In this document: positions 8,747 to 62,372 of the stretch, piece by piece
How positions within the stretch are numbered: the stretch's first letter is position 1
Layout of the letters: every line of letters starts with the position of its first letter
Origin: Candidatus Moraniibacteriota bacterium
Lineage (GTDB): Bacteria; Patescibacteriota; Minisyncoccia; Moranbacterales; GCA-2747515
Direction: 5' to 3'
DNA: 64,000 nt
Assembly: GCA_046116545.1 (NCBI GenBank)
Contig: CP175956.1
Location: forward strand, 769,734 to 833,733
Position numbers and translations under genes: made by a program
The notes under the pieces: generated by a model
Database searches by the model: none
What the model was told of the DNA's origin: nothing
What the model saw: the letters and a program-made list of their open reading frames with translations, nothing else

Positions 8747-8781
8747 CCCCCTCTCCCTCTGGGAGAGGGTTGGGGTGAGGG
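8747..8781 (+). repeat. GC-rich palindrome CCCTCTCCC-tct-GGGAGAGGG followed by a G-run motif (GGGagaGGGttGGGGtgaGGG)
   Basis: Seen directly at 8749-8757/8761-8769. It has four G-tracts separated by 2-3 nt, inside an otherwise AT-rich intergenic region just upstream of the mutL start. Confidence 0.5.
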
Positions 8782-8992
8782 TCTTAATATACTTCAATTA
8801 TACAACTATACCACAAATACAAATCTAGATTCTATCACGTCATAAAAAATCACAAATCACATGTCATTCCAGAAATGTTTATTTTTTGTAGGGACAGTGC
8901 CTTGTGCCTGTCCGTTCAATACTGATTAGTAAAAAATATCATTGTCCGGAATCTATACTAACAAATTTAAAGAAAGTCTTTGTTACAATAAT

Positions 8993-9016
8993 ATTCCTGC
9001 CTTCGCAGGAATGACA
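8993..9016. repeat. REP-like palindromic element ATTCCTGCCTTCGCAGGAATGACA (copy 1 of 3)
   Basis: Identical 24-mers occur at 25838-25861 and 33249-33272; the stem ATTCCTGC/GCAGGAAT has a CTTC loop. Confidence 0.7.
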
Positions 9017-13842: not shown

Positions 13843-13890
13843 TTCAATAATTTTTCAATTTATTTCACCTACCAATAATACCACAATTTT

Positions 13891-13965
13891 GTCATTCCCG
13901 TGAAGATGGGAATCTAGTTCTTTTTTGTTATCTTCTTTTTGAGTTATCCGGAAATTCCGGATAAC
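13891..13965. repeat. two adjacent small palindromes: GTCATTCCC-gtgaagat-GGGAATC and GTTATCCGGAA/TTCCGGATAAC
   Basis: Seen at 13891-13914 and 13943-13965. The first shares the GTCATTCC head with the REP-like family. They lie at the boundary between mutS and the R-M island. Confidence 0.5.
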
Positions 13966-25679: not shown

Positions 25680-25837
25680 ATCACTCCTCCACTTTCAAAA
25701 AATGTTAAAAGATATAATATATCTGTTGTTAAAAAAACTATCAAGGTATATTATCACATATTTATATCTTTATCAAACAAAAAATATCCATTTAATGGAT
25801 ATTTTCATAATTAGATATAGCAAAGTGATACACTAAG

Positions 25838-25861
25838 ATTCCTGCCTTCGCAGGAATGACA
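25838..25861. repeat. REP-like palindromic element ATTCCTGCCTTCGCAGGAATGACA (copy 2)
   Basis: Exact copy of 8993-9016. Confidence 0.7.
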
Positions 25862-25905
25862 TAAGATGAAAACATCCAGTGATACTGCTAGTTTTTGAGA
25901 ATAAC

Positions 25906-26131
25906 AAAAAACACCCAACCAATGAGTGTTTTATTTCTAGCAAGTTCCTGAATCAAGTTCAGGATGACATTTACATGTCATAATCTTTTGCGGTTAGTCC
26001 TTATCGATACTATTACCTTTGAGCCGTACATTACAATTATGTATATAAAAGATACATAATCGACCAAAATGGGTTTTAAGAACTTGATGTGACCATCAAC
26101 TCTTTCACCTTTACGCCCTAGAAAGGAGGTG
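25906..26131 (-). repeat. orphan duplicate of the 16S rRNA 3' trailer (terminator hairpin, REP variant, processing-stem half), ending in the last 12 nt of 16S (CACCTCCTTTCT) but lacking the 16S body
   Basis: About 90% identical to 33192-33430, for example tgtcataatcttttgcggttagtcct...gagccgtacattacaattatgt...cgaccaaaatgggttttaagaacttgatgtgaccatcaactcttt. The terminator hairpin ACACCCAACCAATGAGTGT is present in both copies. Confidence 0.7.
25945..25969. repeat. REP-like variant TTCCTGAATCAAGTTCAGGATGACA
   Basis: Stem TCCTGAA/TTCAGGA ending in GGATGACA, related to the 53077/53418 copies. Confidence 0.5.
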
Positions 26132-26245
26132 TTTGGGACCTGACATAACACGCAAAATTGTGCAAAAAACTACTATAACAACTGAGATGAGTTTGATAAA
26201 TTAAATTACTGTTTTATATAGTCATTCTACTGCATAGCCAATAAA
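26122..26245 (+). repeat. repeat element 'P2' copy A: AAAGGAGGTG + conserved 23-codon TTG ORF + ~40 nt tail
   Basis: aaaggaggtgtttgggacctgacataacacgcaaaattgtgcaaaaaactactataacaactgagatgagtttgataaattaaattact is ~95% identical to 31635-31725. The ORF TTG 26133..26204 translates as MGPDITRKIVQKTTITTEMSLIN. Confidence 0.65.
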
Positions 26246-33053: not shown

Positions 33054-33191
33054 GAAGTCCTCCTCTGTATATGTAATTTTTAAGAAACTAAGTGTAAAAT
33101 AATATTATTATTTCTAATTCAAACTACTAAAAATAACATTGTATAATACACTATTTTTCTTAAATTGTCAAGGTCACTCTCAAAACAAAAA

Positions 33192-33210
33192 ACACCCAAC
33201 CAATGAGTGT
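33192..33210 (-). terminator. 16S rRNA transcription terminator
   Basis: On the minus transcript: ACACUCA-uugg-UUGGGUGU (contains a G-U pair) followed by UUUUUUG. The same hairpin is present in the orphan trailer copy. Confidence 0.55.
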
Positions 33211-33248
33211 CTTTAAATTCTAACAAGTTTACGTAATAACACACTAAG

Positions 33249-33272
33249 ATTCCTGCCTTCGCAGGAATGACA
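33249..33272. repeat. REP-like palindromic element ATTCCTGCCTTCGCAGGAATGACA (copy 3), in the 16S trailer
   Basis: Exact copy. Confidence 0.7.
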
Positions 33273-33421
33273 TTTGTGTCATAATCTTTTGCGGTTAGTC
33301 CTTTCGATACTATTACCTTTGAGCCGTACATTACAATTATGTGTATAAAAGACACATAATCGACCAAAATGGGTTTTAAGAACTTGATGTGACCATCAAC
33401 TCTTTACACCTTTACTCCCTA

Positions 33422-34914
<1,493 letters not shown>

Positions 34915-35440
34915 AAACGATATCTTACCCGAAAAAGGTAAGACCATCTCTGCTCGAATCAACATTTAACGAGATGTATTGCGATGAACCGTAGTTCATC
35001 TAATTTGACTAGACTCAAAGATTAATAGATCGGATTGTTATTACATATAAATATGTAATAACGGTTTGTTGTTCCAACTTAATAAAAAGTTCATACAACT
35101 TTTAAGGACTAACCACAAAAAATTATGAACTTCATATTTCTTTATGATTGGTATATTTGCTAGTTGTCTTCAAATACTGTTACAAAAGTATTTGATTACA
35201 ATATATTATATTTTTAAAGTTCTTGCTCTCACTTTCTCTATCGAGAAAGAAAAACACATCTCTAGAAACTTTATCATACAAATAAAATTTTGTCCAGAGA
35301 TGTATTATTCTTTCATTCAATTCATTACGAATGGAGTTAACAATACTTCCGTTACTCATGTCTCTTCTTTTATTAACACTAAAGCCTATTATACATGTAA
35401 AAAAAATACTGTCAAGCTTTTTGCTTTGTGCATAGAAAAA

Positions 35441-39980: not shown

Positions 39981-40010
39981 TGTAGAGACGCGATTAATCG
40001 CGTCTCTACA
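39981..40010. promoter_or_regulatory. 30-bp perfect palindrome TGTAGAGACGCGATTAATCGCGTCTCTACA, 12 nt upstream of the serS start
   Basis: Seen directly. A near-identical copy lies at 50054-50083, upstream of lysS. Confidence 0.5.
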
Positions 40011-51479: not shown

Positions 51480-52406
51480 TTAGAAACCAGCTAACACCAC
51501 TTCCTCCTTTAATTGTACATCAAACTCATCTCTTACGCGAGTCTTTGCCATTGCAGATAACTGTATGACTTGTTCTGCAGTGCCTTCGCCCATATTGATG
51601 AAATAATTCGCATGCTGAACACCAGCTTGCACATCACCTATTCTTTTTTGAAATAAACCACATGAATCAAGTAACCACCCAGCAGGGACTCTTCCTCCAT
51701 GAGATTTGCTTCCAGTATCACTCTCAAACATTTTTTGAACCTTTTCATCTACACTTGGATTCACAAAGAAAGAACCTGCACTTTTTATATTTTGAACTTG
51801 TCTTGAGTTCCTCCGCGCAATTATATTATACATATCTCTTTCAATTTTCTTTTTATCACCTAAATTTAAAATAAATGTAACACTAATGATGATATATTCT
51901 GGATTCTTTTTAAAGAAACTATTTCTATAACCAAAGTCACATTTTTCATTATCAAATATTGCAGTTTCACCAGTATTAGCATTCAATACGTGTACTTCTT
52001 TTATAATTTCCTTCATCTCTGTACCAAATGCACCCGCATTACCTCTCACAGAACCACCTACGGACCCAGGTATCCCTGTTAAATTCTCACCACCCGTCAA
52101 ACTATTCTCAGTTGCAAACATGAGTAAATCCATCAAATCAGTCCCAGCACCACACATAAGTTCACCACCATGCAACACCATGCTATTTATATGAATCTTT
52201 ATAACAAGTCCATCAAAACCATCATCAGAAAAAAGAACGTTGCTACCACCTGCCAATATAAAATGTTTAATTTCCTTTTCACGAGCAAATTTAATAGCTT
52301 CTTGTATATCATCAATGCTTTCCGCAAACACAAAATATCTAGCATTACCACCAATCTCAAATGTTGTATATTTCCTCAATGAAATATTTTCTTGTATATT
52401 TAACAT
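51480..52406 (-). CDS. murB: UDP-N-acetylenolpyruvoylglucosamine reductase
   Basis: LRKYTTFEIGGNARYF and ILAGGSNVLFSDDGFDGLVIKI (FAD-binding PCMH), plus a C-terminal MurB domain. Confidence 0.85.
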   Translation of the reverse strand: MLNIQENISLRKYTTFEIGGNARYFVFAESIDDIQEAIKFAREKEIKHFILAGGSNVLFSDDGFDGLVIKIHINSMVLHGGELMCGAGTDLMDLLMFATENSLTGGENLTGIPGSVGGSVRGNAGAFGTEMKEIIKEVHVLNANTGETAIFDNEKCDFGYRNSFFKKNPEYIIISVTFILNLGDKKKIERDMYNIIARRNSRQVQNIKSAGSFFVNPSVDEKVQKMFESDTGSKSHGGRVPAGWLLDSCGLFQKRIGDVQAGVQHANYFINMGEGTAEQVIQLSAMAKTRVRDEFDVQLKEEVVLAGF

Positions 52407-52411
52407 ATTTC

Positions 52412-53047
52412 TTAATCATTATCAGTTAATTTCTTTATGTTTTTGCCTTGTTTTTGATTTTCTGATTGCATATTTTGTAGAACAGTCAATCCATGATCAC
52501 TTGAATCATGTATTTTTATAAAAACTTCTTTATCCACAAAATATACTTGCACACCATTTTCAATCATTGTATCCAATGCAGATTCAACCAGCTCTTCACT
52601 TGATGGCTTCACAGAGTCCCTACTAACCCATTCACAATCACCCATTCCTTTTTTTTCATCACAATAAAAATCATCAAAATTGTCAATTTCATAAATGCTA
52701 CCACCGTTATCAAATTTCCTAAAATGTTCTTCACTTCCAATAACTATATAATATACATCACCAAATTTACCTTTATTAGTCCAGCCATCATTCATTTCAG
52801 GCACTAGAAACATAGATGCAAAAGCCTTGTCTGGTGTAGCAAAAATTACAGAGCCCTCATTTCCATCTCTATATTTTTTATTTAAAGAAGGATCAAATTC
52901 TTGAATATTTTTTTTACTCATACCACGATATAATTTTTGAGGTTTTTCAAATTGCTTCTCAATTATTTTTTCATGCTCAAAATTATCTGCCAATTCTTCA
53001 TCGGCTAATCTATCGATTTTATTTTGTTTTAGATTTTCAAAATTCAT
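52412..53047 (-). CDS. hypothetical protein
   Basis: 211 aa ORF. Confidence 0.35.
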   Translation of the reverse strand: MNFENLKQNKIDRLADEELADNFEHEKIIEKQFEKPQKLYRGMSKKNIQEFDPSLNKKYRDGNEGSVIFATPDKAFASMFLVPEMNDGWTNKGKFGDVYYIVIGSEEHFRKFDNGGSIYEIDNFDDFYCDEKKGMGDCEWVSRDSVKPSSEELVESALDTMIENGVQVYFVDKEVFIKIHDSSDHGLTVLQNMQSENQKQGKNIKKLTDND

Positions 53048-53076
53048 ACATTAATAATATCAATTTACTCAAAGAT

Positions 53077-53443
53077 TGTCATCCTGAACTTGTTTCAGGA
53101 TCTAAGTCATAAAGAAGCTGACAGATCTTTCCATTCACTATTAGATTCTGTAATTAAGTTATGTTTCCATTCTTTATGCCAATTTTTCAATTGTTTTTCT
53201 CTATTTAATGCACTCATCACATTTTCTGTTTGTTCAAAATAAACTAATTTATTTACATTGTACTTTTTAGTAAATCCATCCACAAGTTTATTTTTATGTT
53301 CATGCACTCTTTTTTGTAAATTTCCTGTTACTCCAATATATAAAACATTATTATATTGATTAGTTAATATATACACACAATATTGTTTCATAAAATTATA
53401 GTTTTATGATGCCATGAGATCCTGAAACAAGTTCAGGATGACA
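53077..53443 (-). mobile_element. GIY-YIG nuclease ORF (53107..53391, 94 aa) bounded by perfect 26-bp terminal inverted repeats TGTCATCCTGAACTTGTTTCAGGATC
   Basis: Left arm at 53077-53102 and right arm at 53418-53443 are exact reverse complements. Protein CVYILTNQYNNVLYIGVTGNLQKRVHEH matches the GIY-YIG (COG2827/YhbQ-like) motif. Mobility is inferred. Confidence 0.4.
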
Positions 53444-53449
53444 ATTTTT

Positions 53450-54790
53450 TTATTCTTTAATTATATCATAAACCTTCCAAATATCTCCGGCTCCCAGTGT
53501 TATAAATACATCATTTTCTGTTAAATTATTTTTCATCCAATCAGCCAACTCATCTACTGTGTGAATGTTTTGTTTTTTATCACAATTCACTTTGTCCACT
53601 AAATCTTGTGATGTAATATTTCCAACTATTTCACGTGCACTTGCAAAAATATCTAATACTATAACCTCGTCTGCAATACTGAGTGACTGTGCAAACTCTT
53701 CCAATAATGCTTCTGTTCTAGAAAATGTATGAGGATGAAATGCTGCTATTATATTTTTATCTTTAAATATCTCTATTGCAGTCTTTAAGGTTGCGCTGAC
53801 TTCTTCTGGATGATGTGCATAATCATCTATCAAAACTGCTCCATTTAAATTTCCTTTTTTTTCAAATCTACGAGATGTACCTACACACTTATTAATCCCC
53901 TCGCTTCCAGCGACTTCTTCATTTGTCACAAGTAAATTCATAAGCCACGCTGCTACTGCATTTTTTGCATTATGTAATCCGAATAATTGTGTTCTAATCT
54001 CATGATTCTCTCCACGAAACTTCACTGTTACCACTTGTCCATTTTCAACAACCTTTCTATCAGTAATACGACAATTATTCAATTCTCTTTCGCCATAAAA
54101 AAATACCTGACACTTAGCCGATAATGCCACATCACGCACATCATCGTCATCACCGTGAGCCACCAAAAATCCATCTTCTGGAATTTTAGTAACAAAATCA
54201 CTAAATGTTTTTTTATAAACTTCAAAATTCTCAAAAAAATCAGGATGATCAAAATCAACACTTGTCAAAATTACAGAAAAAGGATTGTAAAAAGCTAGTT
54301 TATTTTGATATTCATCCGCCTCTAAAATAAAATATTCTCCATCTCCACTATAAGCACCACCACCCCACGATTGTATTTTTGAACCCACAAGAGCTGTTGG
54401 ACTAAAACCTGCTTCAATAAATGCATGTGCTGTTAATGCTGTTACCGTAGTTTTACCATGAGTTCCACATACTGCTATGGTTTTTAATCCCTCAGTCAAT
54501 TTGCCAATAGCCTCAGGATAACTTAAAACCTCCAACGATAATTCATTGGCCTTTTGTAACTCTATATTATCAGTCTTAACTGCAGTAGTATGTACCACAA
54601 AATCAATATCATTTGTAATATGTCTTGCATCAAACTTATCAAAAACTTCAATGTTATTTGCTACTAGATTAGATACATAAAACCCATCACCTTCATCTGA
54701 CCCACTTACCACATTTCCTTTCTCTTTATAGATTTTAGCTAAAGCAGCTGTACCTGCACCACCGATTCCCACTATGTAGATTTTTTTCAT
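53450..54790 (-). CDS. murC: UDP-N-acetylmuramate--L-alanine ligase
   Basis: MKKIYIVGIGGAGTAALAK (GIGGxGMS-like), a Mur ligase central domain with GTHGKTT, and a C-terminal domain. The track ORF starts 7 codons upstream at 54811. Confidence 0.85.
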   Translation of the reverse strand: MKKIYIVGIGGAGTAALAKIYKEKGNVVSGSDEGDGFYVSNLVANNIEVFDKFDARHITNDIDFVVHTTAVKTDNIELQKANELSLEVLSYPEAIGKLTEGLKTIAVCGTHGKTTVTALTAHAFIEAGFSPTALVGSKIQSWGGGAYSGDGEYFILEADEYQNKLAFYNPFSVILTSVDFDHPDFFENFEVYKKTFSDFVTKIPEDGFLVAHGDDDDVRDVALSAKCQVFFYGERELNNCRITDRKVVENGQVVTVKFRGENHEIRTQLFGLHNAKNAVAAWLMNLLVTNEEVAGSEGINKCVGTSRRFEKKGNLNGAVLIDDYAHHPEEVSATLKTAIEIFKDKNIIAAFHPHTFSRTEALLEEFAQSLSIADEVIVLDIFASAREIVGNITSQDLVDKVNCDKKQNIHTVDELADWMKNNLTENDVFITLGAGDIWKVYDIIKE

Positions 54791-54820
54791 ATAAATATTT
54801 CTATAATTCAAAGCAACTTT

Positions 54821-62075: not shown

Positions 62076-62372
62076 TTAAGGCTTTCCCAAATATCGAATA
62101 TTCACCCATCCATCTGATGTACAAATCAGTGCCTCTTGTCCAATCAAAACTGTTGAGCCTACCTTTTTGATTGTCACACTGCTATTTCCTGGTAGCTTTA
62201 TCTGACACTTTCCCCAATTTGCTTTAACGCTATCTAGTGCAGCATTATGCACTCTGCCAACACCAGACTTCATACTATCTTCTACATCAGTACTATTAGC
62301 ATTACCCACAACTGCACCAACACCAACCATTACAAGAATTAACATTATAGTTTTCTTCATTCTTTCCTCCAA
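62076..62372 (-). CDS. small secreted hypothetical protein
   Basis: N-terminal signal peptide MKKTIMLILVMVGVGAVVG. Confidence 0.4.
   Translation of the reverse strand: MEERMKKTIMLILVMVGVGAVVGNANSTDVEDSMKSGVGRVHNAALDSVKANWGKCQIKLPGNSSVTIKKVGSTVLIGQEALICTSDGWVNIRYLGKP

Follow-up and report, generated by a model that had tools for sequence, protein, structure and literature searches.

Two questions are raised by a short segment of a Candidatus Moraniibacteriota genome: why does a perfect inverted repeat enclose a small nuclease gene inside a mur cluster, and has the whole arrangement moved there as a unit? The segment lies in a stretch of 64,000 nucleotides of contig CP175956.1 (assembly GCA_046116545.1, positions 769,734 to 833,733, hereafter the window), in which a sequence-only reading had noticed a GIY-YIG open reading frame (ORF) precisely bounded by 26-bp inverted repeats. 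We have followed up that observation by computational comparison. The results support the view that the segment is a cassette of the Ssn-SRM kind, in which a gene for a putative nuclease related to SsnA of Neisseria meningitidis is flanked by hairpins that, together with dispersed solo copies, would serve as its recognition elements. Such elements go by the name of Ssn-related motifs (SRM), and also by those of NTS/dRS3 repeats and CGTC/TGTC-tagged REPs. We give this account a probability of about 80%. The cassette is composed of the following features, where R1 is a covariance model described below:

53077..53443, minus strand: whole cassette (hairpin, ssn gene, hairpin), 367 bp, TGTC tags outward, perfect 26-nt inverted repeat
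53418..53443, minus strand: hairpin upstream of the ssn gene, loop-5 type, R1 46.8 bits, E 4e-8 (R1 includes this arm)
53107..53391, minus strand: ssn gene, 94-aa single-domain GIY-YIG nuclease, Pfam PF01541, E 4e-16
53077..53102, plus strand: hairpin downstream of the ssn gene, loop-5, exact inverted copy of 53418-53443, R1 46.4 bits, E 5e-8 (R1 includes this arm)

The inverted repeat was confirmed. The 26-nt sequence TGTCATCCTGAACTTGTTTCAGGATC at 53077-53102 (plus strand) recurs as its exact reverse complement at 53418-53443, and a match was found in none of 100 dinucleotide-preserving shuffles of the window. The repeat stretches to 33 nt at 97% (53071-53103 / 53417-53449). The arms had been said to enclose only the GIY-YIG gene. 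The 94-aa ORF (53107-53391, minus strand) is indeed the only one between them that matched a known family, but a 50-aa ORF also lies there on the opposite strand (53090-53242). Each arm folds into its own DNA hairpin with an 8-bp stem and a 5-nt loop (-6.1 kcal/mol, z ~ -2.7). Read on the minus strand, the upstream arm consists of the tag TGTC, the stem ATCCTGAA/TTCAGGAT with the loop CTTGT, and a C after the stem. This hairpin begins 6 nt past the murC stop codon, with its tag 52 nt from the ssn ATG; on the downstream side, 30 nt separate the end of ssn from the hairpin tag.

Both components have published counterparts, the repeat class being known since 2013 and the kind of system since 2025. 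Di Nocera et al. (2013, BMC Genomics; PMC3733652) defined the "CGTC-tagged REPs" as intergenic repeats with an unpaired CGTC tag (TGTC in many repeats, or CCTC), a stem of 8-9 bp whose first pairs are A-T and then T-A, a loop of 4 (family 1) or 5 nt (family 2) and a short unpaired tail with the consensus CCA. They form inverted dimers, with heterodimers reported for families 2 and 3, and their superfamily includes dRS3 of Neisseria and RPE-4/RPE-6 of Rickettsia. According to the same authors, these repeats "apparently lack a dedicated transposase" (PMC3733652). Chenal et al. (2025, Nat Commun; PMC11893778) described the Neisseria member as NTS (CGTCATTCCCGCGMAVGCGGGAATCYRG, containing dRS3), together with SsnA of N. 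meningitidis, a 94-aa single-domain GIY-YIG protein (CDD cd10448, GIY-YIG_unchar_3) whose family, Ssn, is listed apart from Slx1. SsnA binds NTS only as single-stranded DNA (ssDNA) and cuts it a few nucleotides upstream (5') of the repeat. It does not act on duplex DNA, on RNA or on the complementary strand, nor does it bind the repeat in RNA form. Among ssnA homologues across bacteria, SRM were found nearby in 71% and on both sides in 42%. Trimming or restricting transforming DNA in N. meningitidis is the only role experimentally shown for an Ssn protein. The NTS-ssnA-NTS arrangement was likened to an insertion sequence (IS), to IS200/IS605 and to REP-associated transposases, and its domestication was suggested (PMC11893778). 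That study makes no mention of Moraniibacteriota, Patescibacteria or the Candidate Phyla Radiation (CPR), and CPR lies outside the five phyla listed in PMC3733652. Our literature search found no follow-up publication on Ssn mobility.

We have compared the window protein with this family. Its PF01541 match spans residues 3-78 of 94, and no second domain was found. An identical protein is annotated in a genome of Candidatus Moraniibacteriota (Patescibacteria/CPR). In a tblastn search of a plasmid collection in which two gonococcal chromosomes are filed, it gave a single match per N. gonorrhoeae record, with 49% identity and an E value of 2e-22 (pairwise E 1e-32); the SsnA-homology threshold used in PMC11893778 is E < 1e-10. 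The gonococcal ORF (L006 598-882) also has 94 aa, carries Y6, Y17 and E64 and is set among canonical NTS copies. Residues Y7, Y18 and E65 of the window protein align with SsnA Y6, Y17 and E64 and were invariant in a seven-sequence alignment covering four phyla. A homologue from Azospirillum lipoferum showed 43% identity and carries on both sides repeats that match the published SRM search pattern, which likewise finds the N. gonorrhoeae flanks. This homologue lies on plasmid AZO_p3 (L007, 485-993) and is inserted between sufB and sufC, another insertion into a conserved operon. A PDB sequence search with the window protein gave no match, and no ssn paralogue was present in the 64-kb window. 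The published description of Ssn genes as flanked 5' and 3' by SRM hairpins applies here as well, with tagged hairpins on both sides scoring 46-47 bits against R1. Taken together, the window feature is very probably an Ssn-SRM pair, and its Ssn protein is predicted to cut ssDNA site-specifically.

The same reading had reported related hairpins elsewhere in the window, and we have examined these with two covariance models trained on the hairpins found beside homologous genes. R2 (loop-4) holds gene-flanking hairpins of other organisms only and no window sequence; R1 (loop-5) counts the two window arms among its 50 sequences. Together, R1 and R2 recovered exactly seven copies and nothing else significant in the 64 kb. 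The E values ranged from 4e-8 to 7e-5 for the loop-5 copies (R1) and from 5e-9 to 8e-7 for the four loop-4 copies (R2, 34-42 bits). Besides the two arms, the members of the family are:

25942..25969, minus strand: solo hairpin, loop-5 like the flanking repeats, two mismatches (match at 25944-25969), R1 32.1 bits, E 7e-5
25834..25861, minus strand: solo hairpin, loop-4, close to Neisseria NTS, TGTCATTCCTGCGAAGGCAGGAATCTTAG, R2 42.5 bits, E 5e-9
33245..33272, minus strand: solo loop-4 hairpin, ~150 nt past the 3' end of the 16S gene, R2 42.5 bits, E 5e-9
13890..13917, plus strand: solo loop-4 variant, TGTCATTCCCGTGAAGATGGGAATCTAG (variant at 13890-13914), R2 40.1 bits, E 2e-8
8862..9016, no strand assigned: gene-less hairpin pair, tags outward, whole stretch folding at z -5.1
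8989-9016, minus strand: right member of that pair, loop-4, A in place of C after the stem, R2 34.3 bits, E 8e-7
left member of that pair: tentative long-loop variant that opens with TGTCATTCCAGA and closes with CCGGAATC, with tag and closing stem only

The left member was recognised by analogy with long-loop copies in three other loci (L062, L069 and L079). The three identical 24-mers of the earlier reading are present, TGTCATTCCTGCGAAGGCAGGAAT occurring at 8993-9016, 25838-25861 and 33249-33272, all on the minus strand and one of them in the 16S trailer. Perfect-stem hairpins with a GTCAT tag numbered five, compared with a mean of 0.58 in shuffles. The TGTC tag was found in all seven copies, the 8-bp stems are ATTCCTGC and ATCCTGAA, and the loops are GAAG (4) and CTTGT (5). 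A C follows the stem in six of the seven, with TA, TC or TT as the next bases, the homologue loci having CCAG or CTNN. Relative to the NTS consensus, the loop-4 copies differ essentially by one compensated stem pair and by a C to T change in the tag. An Rfam gathering scan of the window detected the 16S rRNA only and no family for the hairpins. The repeats form one oriented REP-like family, as had been proposed.

The hairpin at 25942-25969 sits inside a duplicated copy of the 16S trailer. A segment of ~230 bp, made up of the last ~13 nt of the 16S gene plus trailer, is present twice at ~95% identity (25903-26133 vs 33183-33427), the first copy being attached to no rRNA gene. The sole difference between them is the hairpin body, which occupies the same register and is of the loop-5 type in one and of the loop-4 type plus a "cactaag" tail in the other. 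Such a difference suggests that one hairpin type has replaced the other in place.

Whether gene and hairpins belong together was addressed with 80 metagenome loci that hold homologues with 54-77% identity, 76 of which had flanks sufficient to score. Tagged hairpins with perfect stems were present on both sides in 40 of the 76, and 36 showed one hairpin per side with the tags outward, as in the window. A near-canonical NTS, TGTCATTCCCGCGAAGGCGGGAATCCAG, flanks many of the homologue genes. Positions G2, T3 and C4 of the tag were invariant in 76 arms from other loci. For covariation, we have used 50 loop-5 arms picked by arm-to-arm similarity and not by pairing. In this set, 96.7% of the cells were paired and changes had occurred on both sides in five of the eight stem pairs; the observed values were reached by none of 500 shuffles and by no slid register. 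The arms of one cassette often differ by exactly compensated changes (e.g., ATCCTGAA...TTCAGGAT vs ATGCTGAA...TTCAGCAT). In many loop-5 cassettes (L095-L104, L131 and others), the arms differ systematically, with ATCC... upstream and ATGC... downstream, occasionally reversed, and are thus heterodimers; unlike these, the window cassette is a homodimer.

The degree of conservation is also informative. Arms of 26-28 nt were 100% identical between the window and three loci (L089, L091 and L108) whose genes are 72-79% identical at the nucleotide level. The proportion of synonymous differences (pS) was 0.64-0.85 over five comparisons (dS at least 1.4, not computable for two), and the ssn dN/dS was 0.08-0.11 in the three pairs where it could be computed. 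Since the arms are fully conserved where synonymous sites are nearly saturated and dN/dS is ~0.1, the protein and the hairpins are therefore both under strong selection.

We have then turned to the position of the cassette, which is surrounded by these genes:

53450..54811, minus strand: murC, upstream of the insertion, Pfam Mur ligase domains
52412-53047, minus strand: 211-aa hypothetical gene between the cassette and murB, sub-threshold DUF6886 match only
51480..52406, minus strand: murB, Pfam MurB_C and FAD_binding_4

The murC-murB gap of the window measures 1,043 bp. The sequence-only reading regarded the cassette as inserted here, between murC and the hypothetical gene, and pointed to the murC-murB interval of relatives as the place to look. 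We have surveyed 80 species-representative genomes whose MurC is 43-71% identical. None of the 80 has the ssn gene or the 211-aa gene within ~4 kb of murC, which agrees with an insertion; in 19 of the 80, the murB match begins at most 140 bp from the end of the murC match. A different ORF of 543 aa occupies the murC-murB interval of one relative (L009, MurC 70%). The spacer seems to be a recurrent landing place, because the 211-aa gene is absent from the 80 relatives and L009 carries the 543-aa ORF.

Homologous genes occur in other surroundings. One of them, 80% identical (L005), lies between a hypothetical gene and serS; its inverted repeats of 50 nt have outer ends as in the window plus an extra inner hairpin. 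Across the 80 metagenome loci and L005, 135 neighbouring ORFs fell into 111 clusters, with examples such as a translational GTPase, DapB, a PIN-domain protein, a Mur ligase, a class II aminoacyl-tRNA synthetase, an ABC ATPase and a Mg-chelatase-like ATPase. Only 53071-53463 of the window resembles the homologue loci, the similarity stopping at the repeats. Cassette sizes were 341-643 bp. Gene-less doublets with tags outward were found as well, one of 48 bp beginning 8 nt past a murC stop codon (L064 5386-5433) and one of 82 bp after murC (L043 5423-5504), with a probable one at window 8862-9016. L064 and L043 come from distant Moraniibacteriota and have these doublets where the window has its cassette, the cases being too few to tell a preferred site from chance. 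The comparison shows the cassette as an insertion that travelled as a unit, repeat to repeat, and it probably moved in this way during the history of this lineage.

Shared with Ssn/NTS are the 94-aa single-domain GIY-YIG protein, with 49% identity to the apparent gonococcal orthologue and conserved Y6/Y17/E64, and oriented hairpins on either side of its gene. In these, a (C/T)GTC tag is followed by a stem of 8 bp that opens with AT and has a loop of 4-5 nt, and then by a C. Further dispersed copies are intergenic, and the loop-4 copies of the window are near-canonical NTS. The differences lie in the host, a member of the Moraniibacteriota (CPR/Patescibacteria), in stems richer in A/T, and in an apparently modest copy number of 7-8 per 64 kb. 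In addition, the window has single hairpins with tags outward, as do 36 of the 76 loci, whereas the gene-proximal repeats of N. gonorrhoeae point inward within large clusters. With the CGTC REPs, the window repeats share the TGTC tag, the 8-bp stem with A-T/T-A first pairs, loops of 4 or 5, an apparent short unpaired tail, the inverted dimers and the intergenic location; they differ in flanking a GIY-YIG gene, no dedicated enzyme being given in PMC3733652, and in a tail of C plus variable bases instead of CCA.

An analogy with REP/RAYT systems had been proposed from the sequence, and it fits in layout: in both cases, a small nuclease gene lies between two inverted tagged hairpins that are recognised, or here predicted to be recognised, as ssDNA, and gene-less inverted doublets are dispersed. 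The idea is not new, the same comparison having been drawn in PMC11893778. REP/REPIN-RAYT systems have a Y1 HUH transposase and a GTAG tag, whereas here the tag is TGTC and the enzyme would be a hydrolytic GIY-YIG nuclease without covalent tyrosine intermediate or strand transfer. The window protein gave no match to Y1_Tnp (RAYT), and the cassette is not a member of that group. IS200/IS605 elements also have subterminal hairpins recognised on ssDNA, cuts at a short distance and no target-site duplication, but their hairpins are on the same strand and an HUH TnpA rejoins the ends; the window hairpins are inverted, and no joining activity is known for its enzyme.

How such a cassette would work can be proposed by homology with the tested enzymes of Neisseria, N. 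elongata, N. wadsworthii and Wolbachia. When the DNA becomes single-stranded, during replication, repair or DNA uptake, each repeat would fold into its 8-bp hairpin. The protein would bind the hairpin in a sequence- and orientation-specific manner, the C after the stem weighing most for binding and the GTC before the stem weighing most for cutting, and would hydrolyse the strand ~3 nt from the TGTC tag, on its 5' side. The complementary strand would remain uncut, as would duplex DNA and RNA. With tags outward, the predicted nicks fall just outside both ends of the cassette and on opposite strands (top strand, ~53073/53074; bottom strand, ~53446/53447). Such nicks or breaks might then be resolved by host replication or repair, copying from another copy in a homing-like manner without strand transfer. 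Because GIY-YIG enzymes are hydrolytic and are not known to join strands, copying by the host would be the most economical route; it would explain why target-site duplications are lacking and would also allow hairpin swaps.

The interpretation first given to the segment stands in part. The cassette encodes a nuclease that is associated with the repeat family, but mobilisation itself is only a hypothesis, given that GIY-YIG enzymes are not known to join strands and that no target-site duplication is seen. We regard it as possible, at rather less than an even chance, that the cassette is spread by its own nuclease. A broader version holds that Ssn-SRM cassettes with outward tags are autonomous selfish elements and gene-less doublets their non-autonomous derivatives, spreading through GIY-YIG nicking outside the hairpins and host copying into hairpin-bearing or nearby sites. 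We consider this version unlikely, albeit worth stating. If true, it would represent a mechanism of spread so far undescribed for any transposon and would provide the "missing" mobilising enzyme for the CGTC-REP superfamily (dRS3, RPE-4/6 and others), active in reduced CPR genomes.

Several observations weigh against our account, either against its Ssn-SRM core or against movement of the cassette. The published SRM pattern, HGTCWYN(0-2)YYVSBRHN(0-5)WNVSBRGN(0-2)RNCYNB, matched none of the seven window hairpins exactly; its sole exact match in the window, at 62172, is unrelated. With two substitutions allowed, the hairpin at 13890 and the site at 8991 are matched, although at this setting the pattern is unspecific (31 matches, mostly noise). 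The failure is explained by T/A in the window stems where the pattern demands G/C, in a window with a G+C content of 33%; moreover, the pattern is a manual search tool and not a definition. Four of the five compact solo copies are of the loop-4 type, and the sole ssn gene of the window is flanked by loop-5 hairpins. The gonococcal ORF is the apparent SsnA orthologue, judging from a length of 94 aa, the presence of Y6/Y17/E64 and the NTS copies on its flanks, and ssDNA cutting, cut position and cross-recognition of loop-4 hairpins are extrapolations from proteins 43-49% identical. Regarding movement, the search for an empty site in a truly close relative was unsuccessful, the murC-murB spacer of the best candidate (L010, MurC 71%) being N-masked. 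The position of the cassette was identical in four of four conspecific contigs. No near-identical cassettes were found in differing contexts: four pairs at 98.5% or above with shared readable flanks represent the same locus, and two other pairs had no comparable flanks. Target-site duplications flanking 53077 and 53443, a check suggested by the sequence-only reading, are absent; a palindromic AT on either side is all that is seen, no more than chance would produce. Neither a target-site duplication nor a target motif was seen across 43 cassettes, in which the length of direct repeats was 0-3 nt without a mode. No strand-joining activity is known for GIY-YIG enzymes, which hydrolyse DNA.

A rival reading is that the cassette is a domesticated, now immobile Ssn-SRM system, with which the host trims or restricts ssDNA and whose hairpins are sites of recognition or self-regulation and not transposon ends. 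It assumes the same biochemistry as our account and differs only on biological role and mobility. A point in its favour is that CPR bacteria are thought to depend on DNA uptake. Strong purifying selection (dN/dS ~0.1), the presence of one copy in 64 kb, its same position in the four conspecific contigs, the lack of target-site duplication and the only Ssn role shown by experiment (PMC11893778) all fit domestication. Conversely, homologues with 54-80% identity are found in many unrelated contexts with similarity ending at the repeats, 80 relatives have no such cassette in their murC-murB interval, and the gene-less doublets and the hairpin-type swap between paralogous segments point to turnover. 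Domestication does not exclude past mobility either. We view it as a serious contender, although a somewhat doubtful one.

The remaining explanations are far less probable. A free-standing GIY-YIG homing endonuclease (Seg/I-TevI-like) that cuts duplex DNA in cassette-free alleles and is then copied in by repair, the repeats being incidental, would agree with the fold and with insertion into a conserved operon without target-site duplication, and NCBIfam gave sub-threshold matches only, including a weak one to group I intron endonucleases, whose E value of 3e-4 falls well short of the cut-off. However, the 94 aa correspond to a catalytic domain only, without a DNA-binding domain for a long duplex target, the closest characterised relative cuts only ssDNA at hairpins (PMC11893778), the repeats are conserved, covarying and also solo in many copies, and the flanking target sequences have no common motif, so that we hold this explanation to be improbable. 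The MITE-like (miniature inverted-repeat transposable element) alternative of the sequence-only reading fares even worse in its classical form, which involves a DDE transposase and target-site duplication. A DDE (or HUH) transposase encoded elsewhere that acts in trans on the inverted repeats, the GIY-YIG gene being a passenger, would agree with the architecture of the repeats, with cassettes as small as 341-643 bp and with the doublets that lack a gene; yet none of the 43 cassettes has a target-site duplication, at least 36 independent cassettes all carry this one "passenger" gene, and no transposase is associated with CGTC repeats (PMC3733652). We therefore see very little room for it. Equally slim are the prospects of ordinary terminators or RNA-stabilising stem-loops that happen to lie beside an unrelated housekeeping nuclease gene. 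The hairpins are intergenic and one arm was called terminator-like on the plus strand, but that call opposes the strand of murC and ssn, and a hairpin also precedes the gene. The hairpin sequence is 100% conserved across organisms between which synonymous sites of the gene are nearly saturated, the oriented unpaired tag is invariant, and SsnA does not bind the RNA form (PMC11893778). We have rejected the terminator reading, as the stems lack a subsequent T-run in the direction in which murC and ssn are transcribed and it is the sequence, not pairing alone, that is conserved.

With Ssn-SRM as the preferred assignment, this enzyme-repeat pair, the only known nuclease family that cuts ssDNA site-specifically, is extended to CPR. 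What is new here is the host group, a cassette with a simple heads-out layout, hairpin dialects so rich in A/T that the published pattern misses them, and the comparative evidence for portability. The variable contexts, the similarity ending at the repeats, the conserved arms, the compensatory changes, the doublets and the hairpin swap all bear on whether NTS-ssnA-NTS is or was mobile, a question left by PMC11893778. At 367 bp, the cassette is compact and readily testable, two hairpin dialects coexist in one genome, and the enzyme with its 26-nt site could add a specificity to the proposed toolbox for ssDNA manipulation.

Some further observations concern the homologue loci and the window at large. 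Downstream of a 56%-identical homologue on a Planktothrix agardhii plasmid (L008), the unit "ctgtcattctgagttctcctgtg" occurs three times in tandem at 880-1010 and looks like a run of truncated hairpin heads; this homologue has an MmeI-type restriction enzyme gene on one side and drmA of DISARM on the other. In the window, the 16S rRNA gene (33423-34915, minus strand) is accompanied by no 23S, 5S or tRNA gene anywhere in the 64 kb, and the rRNA genes are apparently unlinked, since no 23S or 5S lies near the 16S within the window. Other palindromes at 8749-8785, 8890-8916 and 39981-40010 resemble widespread repeat families. Among them are CCCTCTCCCTCTGGGAGAGGG followed by TTGGGGTGAGGG and two GTAG-headed ones, TGTAGGGACAG...CTGTCC and TGTAGAGACGCGATTAATCGCGTCTCTACA, which may be GTAG-type REPs. 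Finally, the tag end of the downstream cassette hairpin, read outward (53082-53054, minus strand), gives ATGACA, with TATTAT 17 nt further on and preceded by TG. This promoter-like site (10/12, by consensus match only) lies just upstream of the ATG of the 211-aa gene, for which the downstream repeat might supply the -35 element.

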